From Lytechinus pictus (Eukaryota): a stretch of 64,000 nt of DNA. The stretch lies in assembly GCF_037042905.1 (NCBI RefSeq), contig NC_087252.1, positions 3,970,001 through 4,034,000 on the forward strand, in the 5' to 3' direction. A program made the position numbers and the translations under genes. Below, in pieces: positions 10,050 to 59,764 of this stretch (position 1 is its first letter; each line of letters opens with the position of its first letter). Under the pieces are notes generated by a model. It had not been told where the DNA came from. It saw only the letters and a list, made by a program, of their open reading frames with translations, and did not search any database.

Positions 10050-11693
10050 AGGTAGTTCCCGATATCCCTTCCTGTCCTGTCCCGTGCCATCTTGTCATCT
10101 CTTGCTGTCTTTTACTTTCGTATTGCTTTTTAAGATCATATAGAATGATTCCAATGTAGCGAAAAAGCCTCAGGCTTACTGAACAGTGCAGAAGGGGAAC
10201 CAGCATTACACTTGAAAAAAAAAAACCTGTACATTGTACAAATTCTGATTAAAGATTAGAATTCACTAGTCAAAGAGTTTACTATAGGTAACTCTGCCTA
10301 AGACAACTTTCCGTAAGTCGAATATTTGCCTTAAGTCAAAGGAATTTTTACACCAAATTCTTAAGAAAAAAAAAAGTTAGGCGTTGTATAAAGGTTTTTC
10401 AGTGTCAAATTTCTCCAAAGTCAAAATGGTCCAAGAAGATTTCATTTAAGTCAGAGTTACCTGTTTGTGTACATGAATTCATGTATCCTTTCTCTTTGTC
10501 CTTTCTCTCTATCCTTCATATATTCTATACATGCATGTATACACCCCTTTCCTTTCTCTTATCCCCTATATTTTTATGTTATTTCTTATTTTCAGTCTTC
10601 GGGTTAGCCTTTATATTCTTCTTCACAGCTTTTTTGTCTGTCTTTTATTCTCAAGCTGTTATGTGTCCACGATATCTTTGTGGATTGATGAGAACTATTA
10701 AAGATGAGACAAACAGAATAATCCTCTGAAATAGAGTTAGATGAAGGAAATATAGTCTTTAAGCCTGTAAATTCAGCCTTTTGGCTGCGAAGTGCGAAAA
10801 TATTGCAATTTCAATTTTCAATGATGATTTTTATCTTTCAAATATCTTTGAGCACCTGGGATTCACAGTTTTCACCTCATACATGTATTTTTGACAAAAA
10901 GAATAGAGCACAGCATAATTCTGCCTTAAAGAAGGCAATAAAAGGCTAGAATCCAAACACTTGACTTACCCATAATCCATCACTGTCAGTCTACCATGAG
11001 TTCTGGATCTAGAAAGCCAGAACAGTTGTTCTCTAAAAGACAAAAAGACTGATTACGAATGGCGAGACATGCAAGATTGAAAACAAGACTGGTTATTTAT
11101 ATATAGTCATATCAGCTTCTCGCAAATATGATATATTTTTCAAATTGATTAAAATATTTTTTTTTGTTCCATACAAGATGACAGAAATTCACAATAATGT
11201 TTACATTTCAGTAATGAAATTCAATCAGCAAATTCTTGTATGATGAGAGTCCATTGTACTTTGTCAAGACTGTAAATATCTTAAGGGGGTATAAATAGTA
11301 ATCTGGGACAATTTTGACACAAAAAAACATTTTTTTAATTTTTGGATCATTGGAATAAGGGATATCTGAAATACCATAATCTAAATTTTTATGTCAAATA
11401 AATCACTAGAAATATGTTAAATTCAAGTTCAAAGTCAAGGATTTCACAGCATTGAATTACCTTTTGGCGCTCCCTTCACACGAAAATCGCATTATTTTCT
11501 TTGAAAATTCATTAAAAATAAAATTGTAAACCAAAACCTATCAAATAAGGTCTCAAAATGAAGAGGAGAACAAGGTCTGAATTCCTAGACTAGTTTTATA
11601 CATGTGCAATACTGCCATCTAGAGGCGGAGACAGAACAATCACTTTTCTTCAAACTCATGTGATCTTGGCTGTGTGTGGATACTCGACTCAAA

Positions 11694-11967
11694 ATGCCTC
11701 GCAAAACCCCAAAATACGTAAAAAAGAAGAACTTCTTTAGAGGAACACCATACCATGTCATGAAAAAGCTGGAAAATAGAGAAGAGGAGGAGGAGGAAGT
11801 GATAACAGCATCAGAAAGAAAGCTATCTCTCAACAAAACCAGTGAAAGCCCAGATCTACAAAGCGGTCCCACATGTACAGATTCACGTAGGGATCTTGAA
11901 GGTTTTTACCTGATCAGTGGCAAACAGCTTGCTTCTACTTTGCAAAGGGCTCATGTGTGCCAGGGAG
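11694..11967 (+). CDS. Transposase exon 1 (MPRKTPKYVKKK...RAHVCQG, basic NLS-like N-terminus)
   Basis: AAAATG start at 11694 and GAG|GTATGT donor. Length 274 nt, ending in phase 1, which matches exon 2. Confidence 0.8.
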
Positions 11968-12507
11968 GTATGTACTTCTTATTGGTTGTTATTTTTGATA
12001 ATTCACATTTCATGAATGTAGCTCTTACCCATTTCAAAATGCAATATTTTGAGATACATGTGCATGTACAGACACTACTGCCATATGACTGCCTGGCAGC
12101 AAAAAAAAAAAAAAATGAAATAAAGTAAAGACTGAAGTCTAATTATAAGAAATAATAAAAAGACTGACAAATGTTGGGTTACAAATCCACCATTGTTTGC
12201 AAAATCATTATCAAAGTATATCTATAACTTGATATTATTGATCTGAAATGGTTTGCTTTTTAATTTAGGGTAGGCCTAGGAGTATATTCTGAATTCCACA
12301 ATTTTTTTTCTAAAAAAATAAACTGAAAGTTTGGGTTTACATAATCCACTTTAAATACAATAACATATAGAATAAGTCTAGTAAACAATAAAAATCCTCA
12401 TTTTACTATAATATTGATCCTATTCTTCTCAAAATTGCAGATGTAATGTCAACCTTTGATTAATTTTAGTTAAACAGCTATTCCATAATCCATATTTTCT
12501 ACTATAG

Positions 12508-12797
12508 GGCATCTGATTCCTTTTGAAGACTCATCGAAGAGGGAGGGGCTGAGTTGCACCCTGGTCTTACGATGCTCCATCTGCAGCAAAGAGGAGGAAT
12601 TTTGTACCTCAGAGAATGCTTGTGAAGGGCCAGGGAAGTCTGCCGAGATAAACAGAAGAGCTACGCTGGCGGCCAGTGAAGTTGGACTAGCCCGTGAGGG
12701 ACTATGTGACTTCACAACAATCCTGGGTACTTCGCCACCAGTTACAGCCCCATCCTATGAACGCCATCTGGCCGCTTTGTCAAAAGCAGCACAAGAA
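12508..12797 (+). CDS. Transposase exon 2 (GHLIPFEDSSKREGLSCTLVLRCSICSKEEEF...EINRRATLAASEVGLAREGLCDFTTILG...KAAQE)
   Basis: Not in the ORF track because it lacks a start codon. TTTTCTACTATAG acceptor, GAA|GTGAGT donor, 290 nt open in phase 1 to 0. CxxC and INRR..G..G.L..F motifs resemble the N-terminal part of Mutator-like-domain transposases. Confidence 0.85.
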
Positions 12798-13031
12798 GTG
12801 AGTCATTATTCTTTCACGCTTTCTCATAATTATCTAAAATCTATAATTAACCTACATTTACATGTACTCCAAAGCTATAATTATATGGTTGAGCATCGTG
12901 ATATAGTGATATCCATTTCTATGATACAAAAATAATTCACTCAGTGCTGAAAACATTTTTTAGTGAAGCCTATAAATGACTAAAGACTAAGTGTTCATGA
13001 AATCCATTTTCTCACTATTTTTATTTTGCAG

Positions 13032-14315
13032 GCCACTGAGGAGCACATGAAGATGGCGGCAGAGTGCCTAAGGAGGAGGGCCATGGATAAGGACCCATCG
13101 ATAAAAGAGGATGACTTTGTGGAGGTGGCAGTGTCCTACGATGGTACTTGGCATAGGCGTGGCCACACATCGAATCATGGGGTGGGGGTGGTGATCTCAA
13201 TAGATACTGGGGAGGTTTTGGATACTGAGGTACTGTCAAAAACATGTAAACAATGTGAGTATAGGAAGGGCTGGGATAAAAGTAGTGATAAATATAAGGC
13301 ATGGGAAGCTAGTCATAAGGATGTTTGCTTAGGGATTCATAAAGGGAGTAGTGGAAAAATGGAGGTAGATGCGGCTGTTAAAATTTGGGGTAGATCTGAA
13401 GATAAATATAAATTAAGGTATAAGTATATGTTAAGTGATGGGGACAGTGCGGCATACAAAGCAGTTAAGGATATATATGGGGATGAATGTACAGTACATA
13501 AATTAGATTGTGTAGGGCATGTGGGTAAAAGAATGTATAAGGCACTTGATAAGGTAAGGAAGGATAACAAGGGTAAGTTAGAGGATGGGAAGGGGGTAGG
13601 GCGGGCTAAGGGTAGGCTAAGAGGGACAGCAGATACAGGGTCAATTGGTAGGTTATGTAAATTATATAGGTCAACGATTCGTAGTAATACAATTAATATG
13701 AAGGCTTTAGATAATGATAATGATAAGAAAGAGGCAGTGGAGAAGATGCGCAGGGCAATACTGGCTATTCTCTATCATTCAGTCACTTTGTCTGATAGTG
13801 ATGTGCGCCATCAGTATTGTCCGGAAGATGGTTGGTGTGAATACAAAAAGACAGGAAAAGAGAAGATGAATGAGAATCACTTGGATCCCGTGTTTCTCGA
13901 GCTTCTACTTCCTACATTCACGCGACTCAGTAATCCAGATCTCCTTGAGAGATGCCTCCCAGGTATCACCCAGAACCAGAATGAGAGCTTCAATGCTCTC
14001 ATCTGGAAAAGGTGTCCTAAACACCTGTGGAGAGGTCCACGTGTTGTTCGCAATGCAGTCAACCTTGCAATTCTTGCGTTCAACTGTGGCGCAGAGTCTA
14101 GTCGCTACAGAATTTTCAAAAAACTAAATCTCAAAATGGGGATTCACACTACCATTTGTGCGCAGATTAAAGATAAATATAGAATAAAGAGGGCAAGAAT
14201 TAGGGCAAGGGAGGTCAGTAAAAGAAGGAGGAAGGCACTTAGGGCGTTAAGGAAAAGTAGGGATGAAGCTGATGAAGAAAGGGAAGGGGGGTTGTATTCG
14301 ATGGGTGGCTATTAA
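13032..14315 (+). CDS. Transposase exon 3, RNase H-like DDE catalytic domain
   Basis: TTTATTTTGCAG acceptor in phase 0; 427 codons plus TAA. Motifs VSYDGTWHRRGHTS (D1), CKQC, LSDGDS (D2), DCVGHVGKR (CxxH of the Mutator/hAT/P/Kolobok group), HQYCP..WC and TQNQNESFN (E). Confidence 0.93.
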   Translation, partial: ATEEHMKMAAECLRRRAMDKDPSIKEDDFVEVAVSYDGTWHRRGHTSNHGVGVVISIDTGEVLDTEVLSKTCKQCEYRKGWDKSSDKYKAWEASHKDVCLGIHKGSSGKMEVDAAVKIWGRSEDKYKLRYKYMLSDGDSAAYKAVKDIYGDECTVHKLDCVGHVGKRMYKALDKVRKDNKGKLEDGKGVGRAKGRLRGTADTGSIGRLCKLYRSTIRSNTINMKALDNDNDKKEAVEKMRRAILAILYHSVTLSDSDVRHQYCPEDGWCEYKKTGKEKMNENHLDPVFLELLLPTFTRLSNPDLLERCLPGITQNQNESFNALIWKRCPKHLWRGPRVVRNAVNLAILAFNCGAESSRYRIFKKLNLKMGIHTTICAQIKDKYRIKRARIRAREVSKRRRKALRALRKSRDEADEEREGGLYSMGGY

Positions 14316-14733
14316 GCTAAGGGAATTGTCATAGTACATGAATTTTTGAGGTGTAAATATCGCCCGCATGATCATATTCCCTTACTGCGCATGCGACAAT
14401 TGATTAATTTATGATCATTTATTTTCCTGTTGTAAATATTCGTTAATAGTTATATCTAATGTCCAATTTTGATTCAAATTATTTATATGAATTTGGATTT
14501 TCCTTTTAATTTCTAATTCTTAATCTATGAATTAATTTATTACGTATTTCATTCATTTTTTATATGTTTTTATTATTTCAATATCTTCTTTTATTTTTTA
14601 TTATTTATTATATTTTATTATTTATTATTCATTATTTTTATTATTTTATTGTAGCAATTAATGACGACAATTGGTAGATCACTGCCACTGCCTGTCAAAT
14701 AATCACTTTCACTGCCCCAGCATCATATATTCA

Positions 14734-14783
14734 GGAGGGTCCAGTAGCATTATCAGATATTAACGCTGGCTGCTGGACCCTCC
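14734..14783 (+). other. GC-rich stem-loop inside the transposon 3' region
   Basis: GGAGGGTCCAGTAGC pairs with GCTGCTGGACCCTCC (15 bp including one G-U pair), with a 20-nt loop. Confidence 0.6.
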
Positions 14784-15769
14784 CATTTTGTGCAATATTT
14801 TGTTATCAATTTTAATGATCATAAATGTGTAAATATGTAAATATTTTGTTGTAAACTTGTATATGTATGTAAATATAGCATTTGTAAATATTAAATATGT
14901 ATATATTGCATATATCAGCTTTCTGAAGTACTTATTATGTCATAGAGATGGATATAGGGGTGTTTGATACATGCGTTACTACGTACAGTGAGTATGAGCT
15001 TTTTATTTTCTTTGTTTTCTCAGAATAGTGATTTTGTGTGTTGGTGTGACACTGTGGCCAAAGATTGAGACTGAAGAAAAAGGTGTAGAGTGCTCAAATT
15101 TGGTGTGTAATGTCAGTGGTATATGTGCTACAAGTCTATTAAGGAGTTTTTTAAATATCTTATTGTTTTTTTTAATTATTGATGAATGAATACATAATTA
15201 GCCCCTCTTACGTGCAATCAGAAAAATAAAGAATAACAAAAAATAAAAGAAAAATTCATATAAAAAAAAATAATAATTTTTTCATCAAAAGCTCTCATGG
15301 ATGGATGTATATCTTTATATGGAATAGATATACCAAATATCAAATGAATCTGATGAGTAGTTACTCTGAAATCTTGTCCACTTCCTTTTTCTTATGTTTT
15401 TCTTTATATGCAAATTAGGGATTAATTGTGCTACTTTTTGTGTGCGTGAAATTATACCTTAAGAATATGACTATGAATGTATAAAAAAATTACTGAGGTA
15501 AATGCCATCAAGTATTGAAAAAATGCACTGAAGCACAAATTTGTCACAAACTATATAAATCACCTTAATGCTCATTACATTTGTTAAAAGAGAATTGGTC
15601 ACAAATTGTCACCTTGGGGAACCCCACCATTAAATATTGGAATGTACATGTATTATTTGAAAGTCCAGCTTAAACTTTAGCAAAGTGTCAATCATGTGAA
15701 TTATACTCACTCATCATCTAACATTCAAATCATACATAAAAATGTGTATTCCTTTTCCCCCTACCTTAA

Positions 15770-16262
15770 AAGTCAAGTCCACCCCAGTAAAATGCTGACT
15801 TGAATCAAGGTCCATGCTTGAATAAATAGAGAAAAATTAAACTAGCATAGTGCTGAAAATTTCATCGAAATTGGATGTAAAATAAGAAAGTTATGAGACT
15901 TTAAAGTTTCGCTTATTTTTCACAAAACAGTGATATGCACAACTAGATGAGTCAGTCGATGACTGAACCATATAGTATTAAGCAATGCTATTTCTACATG
16001 CTCAGGAATTGATCGCTGTATCACTTGACAATGAGGAGAAAATTAGAATATTTCATATAATAAAATACAAAAAAAATAGTGAGTGGATGACGCCATAGTC
16101 TCCTCATTTGCATACCAGCAAGGATGTGCATATAACTGTTTTGTGAAATTAAGCGAAACTTTATAATGTCATAACTTTCTTATTTTACACCCGATTTTGA
16201 TGAAATTTTCAGTGTTATGCTTGTTGGATTTTTCTCTTTTTATGTTGGGGTGGAGTTGTCCT
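15770..16262. mobile_element. Kolobok-like MITE, family D copy 1
   Basis: TTAA|AAGTCAAGTCCACCCCA ... TGGGGTGGAGTTGTCCT|ATAA, with long internal inverted similarity. Shares subterminal motifs with 4169-4760 and 48507-48678. Confidence 0.8.
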
Positions 16263-16553
16263 ATAAAAATTGAAATACATGTATGTCAGTATTTTATGTT
16301 GCTTTCTTTGAGAACTTGTCTTACATATTTAGTGGTCGGGAAGCTATTGGCAAAAATGATATACTAAAATATTTAGGCCATTCCTACTTCAGAATAGCTT
16401 TTATATAAAAAAGAAAAAGAAATTCAGATATGTTACTTTGATCCCGAACCTTCAATATATTATTTTTGAAATCATAAAATTGATCCTATAATATATTAAA
16501 AATTTTCCTTTCATATGTCTCATATCATAACTGTTTTACATCATAAAAATTCA

Positions 16554-22262: not shown

Positions 22263-23199
22263 GAAATTTGTAAAATGTCCTTTGTAAACAAAGCAAAACA
22301 CACCAAATTGTCAAGAAATCAAATGAATTTGTGGATATACATTCATATCTAGAACAAATTTCGAACAAACTTGCATTTTATATGTTGACTTTCCTGGCTT
22401 TCCATAGTTGCGATTGATCGGGTCAATCGCAACTCTTTGTAAGACGCAGCCCTGGTTTATTAACCGATCCATCAAGCCACACATAACACATCATATACTT
22501 TAGCATGCTCATCTTATAAGCCTCCCGAATTTCACAATCAAGATATTGTGCTTGTATCATTTTTCGCGGTTATCATTGTTATCCGCAAACTATATCTCTA
22601 TCCATACAAGTCTTTCTTTCTAAGAAAACAACCTCATCCAAATACAAACACATGTATGCCCTAAGGCTCTCTCCATCCTCCTCTCACCCTCGCTAACCTT
22701 GCACTTGAAGACGTGTGGATATGGGTCTATTGCCAACGACTTATTCATCTCAGTTATTCCATCCCTTTCTACTCAAAATTCTCTTACTATCTGTTACAAC
22801 TTCTCTCTGTCCATATTGTGTCTTTTCACATATTATACCTTTTCACTTATCTAATTTCCCCTTCTCTATTTTTTTTCCCTCTAAGATCACATTCAGTATT
22901 CTCTTTTTTCAATGGTCATCTCTCATTCTCTCTATCACACCCTCATCATGAATGTCATTCCATCCTTTTCTCTGAATATGAGCTTGGAGACCAGTTACCT
23001 CTCCATCCTTCTCTCCTTCTTTTCAGTATATCCTCCCCCTTTAATTCACTCATCACTTCTTTATCTCTCTCATTGTCATCTTTGCGTATCCTGCAATCAA
23101 AGCAATCTCTTTCGTGTGTACTTAACAACTGCTTAATTTTTAGCATTCATTTCTCAATTTCTCTTCATGATCATTCAGTTACCTCGCCGTCTCCCCATT

Positions 23200-24010
23200 C
23201 TCTTTTCTTGCCTTCTCATTCTCTCCATTGTGAACTTGTAGACTGCATCATCTCCATCCCTCTCTACTTTCATTCATTCATCCATTCTCTTTCTCCACAT
23301 TGTCCTCCCTTCCACCTCCCCTTCTCTGAAGTTTGGACCTGTATCATCTCCACCCCTCTTATCTCCACCTCTCCTTTTCATCCATTCATTCATTCTCTCA
23401 TCCCCCATTCCCCATCATCTTTGCCTGTCCTCATTTATTCCTCCCCTACTCTAACTTTGGGACTGCATCATTCTCCACCCTTCCTGATCTCTCCTTTCAT
23501 CCTTTCATCTATTCATCCATCCCTCTCTCCCATCATATCAGCCTGTCCTCCAATCATCCTCCCCACTACAAATTTCAGGACCGCATCGTCTCCACCCCTC
23601 TTCTCTCCACCTCACCTTTCATCCTTTCACTCATTTGACCATATCCTGCTTTCCACATCTCTCTTTGTCCTCCCATCATCCCCCTTCTCTCAACTTCTCC
23701 TTCCATCCTTTCATTCATTCGTCCATCCCCCTTCTCCCCCGGCATCTCTGCCTTTCCACCCATCATCTTCCTCCCATCTTGGGACTGCATCATCCCCCTT
23801 CTCTGGACCCCACCTTTCATCCCCTCGTTCATTTGTCCATCCCCCTTCTTCACATCCTCCTCCCCTACTTATAAACTTTGGGACTGCATCATCTCCACCA
23901 TTCTTCATCTCTCCTTTCATCCTCTCATTCATTTCTCCATCCCCCTTTTCGCATTGTCCTTCCATCATCCTCTCCAAGTCTGATCTTTGGGACCGCATCA
24001 TCTCCACCGG
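23200..24010. repeat. Degenerate pyrimidine-rich tandem repeat (about 100-120 bp units)
   Basis: Recurring GGAC(T/C)GCATCATCTCCACC motif near 23240, 23336, 23460, 23578, 23781, 23880 and 23990. Confidence 0.8.
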
Positions 24011-24385
24011 TTCAACCCACAGGCACCATCGTAATCCCACCGCAAATCTCAGTCCCAGTTTCTGAGCTGTCACAGGTCTAGCTCCCATGACTTAGCCGCT
24101 CTTCAAGGCACCCAGCATCATCTCTCCCCTGTATTGGAAATACATGAGACAACATGCGATTCCGTCCTTGTGATAGCCAATATCGCCCCCAGAATATTGA
24201 ATGCTCCACAAAGCAACAATGACAAAATAGGACTGAGATTCTCTTAAACATGATTTGCAACCCCCAGCCCAAAAGTCCCCTCAAAATCGAAAAATACAGG
24301 CACAAAACTGTTATTTTCTCTGTAGATCTTCTGTATTTCCTGTTCTGGGAACAATTTTAGTTTTTCTAGTAGAAACAAAGTTACA

Positions 24386-58345: not shown

Positions 58346-58550
58346 TAGAGGCGGTGATTTTTTGTTTTAAAAAATTGTCTTTTCCGTTTCTGAAAATCTG
58401 TAATTCCGTTTCAACTTAATCTAAAAATGGAAATTCTGTTTTGTCACTGGAAATATACACAGCAAAAACCTGAATTCCGTTTTGCAAAGTATAAGAACCA
58501 AAAGGATTTTCCGTTTCTTTTACCTGTAAAACGGAAAATCACTGTCCCTA
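58346..58550. mobile_element. MITE with TAG..CTA termini and 6-bp TSD (hAT-like)
   Basis: CATTTC|TAGAGGCGGTGATTTT ... AAAATCACTGTCCCTA|CATTTC, with internal TTCCGTTT repeats. Confidence 0.7.
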
Positions 58551-58559
58551 CATTTCATA

Positions 58560-59320
58560 CCTTACCACACTCTTTTCCATACTCTATCCCCACTCCATCC
58601 TACACTTAATCCCATCCAACCCTCAATTCCTCCCATGCTCCATCTTACACTTCATTCATACTCTAACCCTCACTCCATCCCACATTTCACCCCACACTCC
58701 ACCACACACTCCATCTCACACTCCACCCCACACTCCACCACACACTTCATTCCACACTCCACCCCACACTCCATCCAACACTCCACCCCACACTCCACCC
58801 CACACTCCATCCTACACTCCACCCCACACCCCACCCACACTCCATCTCACACTCCATTCCACACTCCACCCACACTCCACCACATGCTCCTTCTCACACT
58901 CCACCCCACACTCCAACCCACACTCCACCCCACACTCCATCCCACACTCTATTCCACACTCCACCCCACACTCCACCACACACTCCATTCCACACCCCAC
59001 CCCACACTCCACCCCACACCCCACCCACACTCCACCCACACTCCATCTCACACTCCATCCCACACTCCACCCAACACTCTATCCCACACTCCATTCTACA
59101 CTCCACCCCACCCCACACTCCACCACACGCTCCATCTCACACTCCACCACACAAGTCCATCCCACACTCCACCCCACACTCCACCACACACTCCATCTCA
59201 CACTCCACCACACAAATCCATCCCACACTCCACCCCACACTCCACCCCACACTCCATCTCACACTCCACCACATACTCCACCACACATTCCATCCCACAC
59301 TACATCCCACACTCTGACTT
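58560..59320. repeat. C/A-rich minisatellite (about 15-bp unit CCACACTCCA(C/T)C..)
   Basis: Dozens of CACACTCCACCC/CACACTCCATC units. Explains the H/S/T/P ORF. Confidence 0.95.
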
Positions 59321-59764
59321 ACATTCTATTTAGACCACAGTTTTCATGTTTGAAATCATATTTTCATGCACAGGAGAGGTATTAATAATAAGACCACACA
59401 CACTTCAAAACCCACCCCACCCAACCCACCCTACCATATATGCTCCGACCCAACTCCACTCTCTACCAAGGGTTAACAACCTCAGCTTTGTTCTTTTTTC
59501 CCTGTAATTTAGGTTCAGGTTTACAATTAATGTGATGTGGAAAACATCTCCCACCCCCTGTTTATCTCCCCCCCCCCCCTCTCTCTCTTTCAGAGAGTGT
59601 GTTCAGATAGCTATCTATGGTGTTTTTAAGACTGCCTGAAATGCCTTTATGCACTTTTTGGCTATTCTGGAGGATATATGTAGTAGGATCAATTGCGAAA
59701 CATCATTTTTTCTCATTCACTTTTTGTTGTTGTTGTTGTTGAATATTTTCCCCTACTATTTCAG

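Follow-up and report, generated by a model that had tools for sequence, protein, structure and literature searches.

The window, that is, the whole stretch of 64,000 nucleotides of Lytechinus pictus DNA that was analysed, carries what is very probably a complete Kolobok element of 4,280 bases on the + strand (11285..15564), which starts with 5'-GG, ends with CC-3' and is enclosed by TTAA target-site duplications, read directly from the sequence, at 11281..11284 and 15565..15568. The sequence-only reading had placed the ends at TTAA/GG..CC/TTAA and had described imperfect terminal inverted repeats (TIRs) of about 55 bp, and both descriptions held, with the repeats being weak: the left TIR (11285..11342, + strand) pairs with the right TIR (15509..15564, - strand) at 36 matches over 58 bases with gaps and at 11 of the first 16 bases. 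The local score of this pairing is reached by 9 of the 2,337 pairs of TTAA-RR and YY-TTAA lying 2-8 kb apart in the window, and the element's pair is the only one among the 2,337 that combines that score with 11 of 16 terminal matches; taken alone, the TIR is only modestly beyond chance. Because the TIR is weak, the ends needed outside evidence. The longest direct repeat within 10500-16500 is 35 nt. Located 200 bases to the right of the transposon, a 493-base MITE-like element (15770-16262) has TTAA on its left and ATAA on its right, its purine-purine ends resemble each other across ~16 bases and its interior contains a long inverted repeat; it is likely a non-autonomous Kolobok of the T2 type, with ends unlike those of the transposon. 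Two further regions with long open frames, 22665-24091 and 58495-59385, are strongly skewed and of low complexity and are probably simple repeats. As for host genes nearby, 45 of the longer ORFs of the window gave no Pfam match above cut-off, a search that small exons could escape.

The element carries one transposase gene on the + strand, in which coding exon 1 (11694..11967, residues 1-92), coding exon 2 (12508..12797, residues 92-188) and coding exon 3 (13032..14315, residues 189-615) are separated by intron 1 (11968..12507, 540 nt, phase 1) and intron 2 (12798..13031, 234 nt, phase 0). As had been predicted, the three exons join through GT..AG sites into 1,848 nt, encoding 615 amino acids plus stop with no internal stop. 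Exon 1 encodes a low-confidence basic N-terminus and the first half of an N-terminal Cys/His cluster. The middle exon, which had been called invisible in the ORF track, actually sits inside a 148-aa stop-to-stop frame (12489-12935) and matches Pfam PF20700 on its own. The proposed Pfam search of the spliced protein returned this family, 'Mutator-like transposase', as the sole match, with exon 2 covering positions 36-121 (E 3.5e-13) and exon 3 continuing consecutively over positions 121-357 (E 1.6e-38).

Exon 3 encodes the catalytic core, and the D-D-E residues and CxxH motif that had been noticed are indeed present, as D225 (13140), D324 (13437), E506 (13983) and C348xxH351 (13509-13520). Across 28 homologues there is no variation at D225, D324, D326, H351 or E506 and next to none at C348; the CCHC finger after the first D is likewise conserved at C260, C263 and C287 and nearly at H283, while a second finger between C/DxxH and the catalytic E (H437, H448, C451, C457) is invariant. 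Two zinc fingers, one of them in the latter position, have been described for Kolobok transposases (PMC9587614), and both are present in the window protein. A protein search found 92 proteins at E 1e-20 or better, the top match being P0001 of Lytechinus variegatus (615 aa), which is identical to the spliced window protein at 607 of 615 residues over the full length. The structural model of P0001 (pLDDT 83.8) has ISCth4 (E 3.6e-5), Hermes and P-element transposases as its best fold matches, all with low TM-scores, and no Kolobok structure is among these matches.

The two predicted splice junctions were searched for in contigs of run X2, which were taken as RNA by guess. Junction 12797/13032 is supported by one contig, which skips 12798-13031 without other letters. 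At junction 11967/12508, the 540-nt skip was seen solely in a contig that is about 90% alike, differing at 31 of about 306 letters, and that at this distance comes from a relative. A relic on the - strand of another chromosome (L036:6200-8110, G000:C2:37.88 Mb), which retains only the 5' part and exons 1-2, may be its source. Since the letters upstream of this relic match a loose end in the DNA of organism B, a related organism, the relic probably predates the separation of the two organisms. The raw RNA run X22, of which 6% was read, yielded 45 reads, only 4 of them at 99% or better, with no splice joint; expression of the window copy is low or absent in this run. An unspliced contig across intron 2 is present in run X1, and a transcript contig extends to 14429, 114 bases beyond the stop. 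Run X1 also holds a contig over the left flank and the first 480 element bases (11000-11764) with a depth roughly nine times that of the remainder, which is perhaps a transcript across the left end. The position of intron 1 is common to the sister family described below and to distant relatives: the sister's introns (510 and 257) interrupt the same codons in the same phases, and an AG acceptor occurs at the place and phase of residue 92 in all of the 11 metagenome loci that were selected for having a match starting at that residue, which indicates that intron 1 is old.

The copy number that had been called for was determined as one complete copy in 812 Mb, where genome counts are to be read as lower bounds. 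The two ends of the element have no match elsewhere in the genome besides contig C349, and no MITE with these ends was found there. A second intact family is represented by a sister on C14 (L033:3884-8117, G000:C14:13111883-13116116), which has an open spliced frame and TTAA at both ends (TTAA/GGGGG..CCCCC/TTAA), and whose protein is 62% identical to that of the window; its spliced product equals P0004 of Lytechinus pictus at 615 of 615 residues, a protein annotated only as uncharacterised. A C3 copy of the C14 family is 97.7% alike; it carries a stop and an internal duplication and lacks TTAA at its flanks. The right end of a third family reads CCACC/TTAA. TTAA was found at 5 of the 9 element ends examined in the genome, the ends lacking it being both of the C3 copy, the right end of a C10 copy and the left end in C349. 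Decayed relatives of several families are scattered through the genome. A tandem array on C11 (G000:C11:10994000-11019300, L011-L030), made up of at least 10 units of 1,099 bases that each contain a piece of a related transposase gene, is a satellite grown from this transposon group.

Outside this genome, a metagenome set of 80 loci at 35-50% identity was available, of which 28 were tested for ends. Twelve of them are whole TTAA/GG..CC/TTAA elements, 3.0-3.4 kb long, whose terminal 16 bases match at 13-16 positions, better TIRs than those of the window element, while the other 16, many on short contigs, gave no TTAA-bounded pair. Near-identical metagenome copies in several families diverge at TTAA/GG or CC/TTAA. 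In a quick tree, built without named Kolobok or MuDR rows, eight TTAA-bounded metagenome relatives directly surround the echinoderm group that includes the window protein. Relatives were absent from viral contigs (none among 23 candidate stretches), and prokaryote genomes gave one related 2-kb contig (L203) in a bacterial genome bin, with a transposase of 34% identity, which is probably host animal DNA contaminating the bin.

The proposal of a single spliced ORF with no partner was borne out as well. The three small ORFs downstream of the transposase had no match in a Pfam search, the element's ORFs contained no His-Me, PD-D/ExK, DEDDh, RecQ or KolX partner, and the 3' part holds no conserved downstream frame, the best tblastx value being E 0.013 over 6-12 residues, a comparison that very small exons could escape. 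A second gene in the 3' part was accordingly rejected. A splice-acceptor-like pyrimidine tract with AG (15000..15035, + strand) is retained in the sister family in the 3' alignment and is followed by no conserved reading frame. The 12 whole metagenome elements likewise have no downstream ORF longer than 80 aa; the 3' parts of the metagenome relatives are 640-780 bases long, as against 1,250 in the window element.

Aligning the 3' parts revealed a conserved hairpin 420 bases 3' of the stop (14734..14783, + strand), which is composed of a 15-pair stem, a 5-nt bulge, a 3-pair stem and a 9-nt loop and is followed by a short T run. It folds at -33.6 kcal/mol (z -5.3, with 0 of 200 shuffles as good), and the hairpin of the C14 sister has z -4.2. 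In an alignment of five rows, namely the window, three C14-family copies and one decayed C10 copy, which count as roughly three independent sequences, pairing is kept in 95.6% of cells, and both partners differ in 7 of the 18 pairs, as against 0-2 in slid controls; related rows can beat shuffles without any structure, and one of the seven double changes falls in the C10 copy where its base is frayed. When the window is compared with C14, six stem pairs have changed on both sides and two on one side, and 15 of 15 are still paired. Two C14 copies retain the 5' half of the hairpin only, and the decayed C10 copy has four true mismatches outside the inner 12 stem pairs. The loop pattern occurs at five places in this genome, all in these elements, and at none in the control. 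Just upstream (14690-14720), three CACTGCC words are present, one or more of which are kept in relatives; CACTGCC corresponds to the seed match of miR-34. An Rfam search of 14300-15570 gave two weak matches far below cut-offs and no hairpin family, and a SECIS element was rejected for want of an AUGA/GA core and of an in-frame TGA.

The hairpin likely falls within the 3' untranslated region of the transposase mRNA, and one may tentatively suggest, short of calling it probable, that this echinoid Kolobok branch carries a conserved structured RNA, preserved through compensatory changes, that would control the transposase mRNA or be produced as a small RNA with its end at the T run. The same pairing could arise in a DNA inverted repeat whose arms are kept matched by template switching or conversion, with neither selection nor RNA involved, an explanation that we also regard as possible rather than probable. 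It agrees with the restriction of the hairpin to two intact families and one decayed copy, and with the minus strand folding nearly as well (-29.1 vs -33.6 kcal/mol). A covariance model from the five rows also found nothing in 52 other loci, including all metagenome relatives tested, and a strict hairpin scan in the 3' parts of 46 metagenome loci found two, both just outside the element end. On the other hand, all seven non-Watson-Crick cells within the inner 12 stem pairs, which represent five independent changes by our count, are G-U when read on the + strand, with not one A-C among them, a pattern that favours RNA on the coding strand and is not one that a DNA repair process would favour. 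Moreover, the letters of the loop and flank are conserved while those of the stem turn over, which also argues against a repeat maintained as DNA.

As to whether the element moves, both a still-active family and a domesticated gene had been considered; the former is now moderately supported, by the C349 copy and the flank in run X7, and the latter is disfavoured. Contig C349 (17.9 kb) contains an exact copy of 11295-15258 of the window (0 differences over 3,964 bases), and the remainder of the contig matches 8.3 kb of C2, a different chromosome, at 98%. The two parts meet at a shared AT, 10 bases in from the left end of the element, so that the first 10 bases and the TTAA are missing from C349; on C2, a TTAA follows 11 bases beyond the joint. 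This fits insertion at that TTAA followed by a short deletion over the element end. TTAA falls within 17 bases at 11% of places in that region. C349 stops within the element, has the size of one long read and could be a chimeric read; since a break this close to the element end would be rare in a random chimera, it is read as a sign of transposase activity, germline or somatic. In the DNA of organism B (run X7), a flank contig leaves the window sequence at 11283 and continues with 535 other letters, while a separate element contig starts at 11281, the first base of the left TTAA; this suggests that the insertion site is unoccupied in organism B. Within this assembly, a search for paralogous flanks revealed no second full match and hence no empty site. 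A contig of run X1, which may not be independent of the assembly, spans the flank and left end with no differences.

Domestication or semi-domestication, in which a low-copy transposase gene is kept by the host, perhaps to serve non-autonomous elements, would agree with the single complete copy and with the protein being 98.7% identical to that of L. variegatus and 67.6% to that of Diadema. In the longest pieces of run X7, coding sequence differs at 7 of 740 letters vs 21 of 434 at the 5' end. In the quick tree the Lytechinus and Diadema genus pairs are sisters; the interleaving of several families across urchin genera in that tree speaks for mobility. Passages in PMC6004289 propose many Xenopus Kolobok genes as domesticated, with DDE retained, and report both mobile and domesticated states. 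The sequence conservation across species and the sister pairs would fit long vertical survival and keep domestication possible. Against this stand the intact state of both ends and both TTAA copies, the identical copy joined to DNA of another chromosome, the seemingly unoccupied site in organism B and the decayed relatives of several families across the genome, and domestication is therefore considered rather unlikely.

The most credible interpretation, held with good confidence, is a complete TTAA-bounded transposon with one twice-spliced transposase gene, which is likely an autonomous, transposase-only Kolobok that likely moved recently. By analogy with its family, the 615-aa protein would bind both ends through its zinc fingers and the helical C-terminal part, its D-D-E centre would cut, and the element would insert into TTAA and duplicate it. 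The family would persist with one or two intact copies in each genome, their reading frame maintained by selection. The hairpin would most likely fold in the 3' untranslated region of the transposase mRNA, where binding by a host double-stranded-RNA-binding protein might determine how stable the mRNA is or how it is translated; this final step is guesswork, as tentative as the structured RNA itself, and stands outside the confidence placed in the transposon. As a transposon, the element is ordinary, being another family of a described superfamily, one that Pfam labels 'Mutator-like'. As an intact and probably active Kolobok whose splice pattern is defined, it is nevertheless a candidate for excision and insertion assays, and also for TTAA-directed gene transfer in sea urchins. 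The one feature that may be new is the conserved hairpin. If it acts as RNA, a DNA transposon would here contain a regulatory element, easily tested with a reporter, and eukaryotic cut-and-paste transposons would gain a cis-acting RNA not described before; it could also explain how families last at one or two copies.

The assignment to Kolobok rather than Mutator, as first proposed from the sequence, is upheld by TTAA/GG..CC/TTAA at this locus, in the C14 sister and in metagenome relatives that part at TTAA, and relatives with such ends and no second gene point to a transposase-only Kolobok lineage, not Mutator. MuDR, hAT and P elements make target duplications other than TTAA, which in Mutator are about 9 bases long. 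The flanks of the element share TTAA only, with no ~9-base duplication of the Mutator type. A Mutator (MuDR) element with TTAA ends by coincidence, for which the name of the only Pfam match, PF20700, and the best fold match, ISCth4, would speak, is extremely improbable, as boundary comparisons have already largely refuted it. Users of TTAA can be separated by their termini, piggyBac having others than the RR..YY of Kolobok (PMC9587614), and the element has the Kolobok type, GG..CC with inverted repeats.

Among known systems, MuDR/IS256 (ISCth4), hAT (Hermes) and the P element share the C/DxxH DDE class with the window protein; ISCth4, Hermes and the P element are its best structural matches (E 3.6e-5 to 2.5e-2), with TM-scores of 0.30 or less over the query and 10-13% identity. 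The Xenopus XKol genes and T2-MITEs, as presented in passages of PMC6004289, are TTAA-specific Kolobok with low-copy intact genes under purifying selection; unlike them, the present element gives no evidence of a fixed orthologous locus, and no MITE with its ends was found. KolobokP, KolobokE, KolobokD, KolobokH and Kol0 belong to the same superfamily as the element, and the CCHC finger after the first D is common to the element and to KolobokP, KolobokE and KolobokD. The element differs from KolobokP in having no long terminal direct repeats and no His-Me nuclease found, and from KolobokE, KolobokD, KolobokH and Kol0 in that no accessory nuclease, helicase or KolX protein was found for it. 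The only Lytechinus family in the table of PMC9587614 is a KolobokP, and the element is not that family. Transposase-only Kolobok lineages with a CCHC finger have already been described (Kojima and Bao 2022, PMC9587614), and the lack of a partner gene is therefore no novelty. Among the rows of Data S5 of that paper, Kolobok-1_LHu, Kolobok-24_HMa, Kolobok-3_DeSi and Kolobok-3_Aplcal are the closest by eye rather than by computation, sharing the motif strings around each catalytic residue. The element's own family may well be unnamed. Narrow searches of the open-access literature, whose scope excludes Repbase Reports and Dfam, found no description of the family or the hairpin. With the transposase-only Kolobok, the element shares TTAA duplication, RR..YY ends, DDE with C/DxxH and both zinc fingers, while it is set apart from them by its echinoderm branch, two introns, degenerate TIRs and conserved hairpin.
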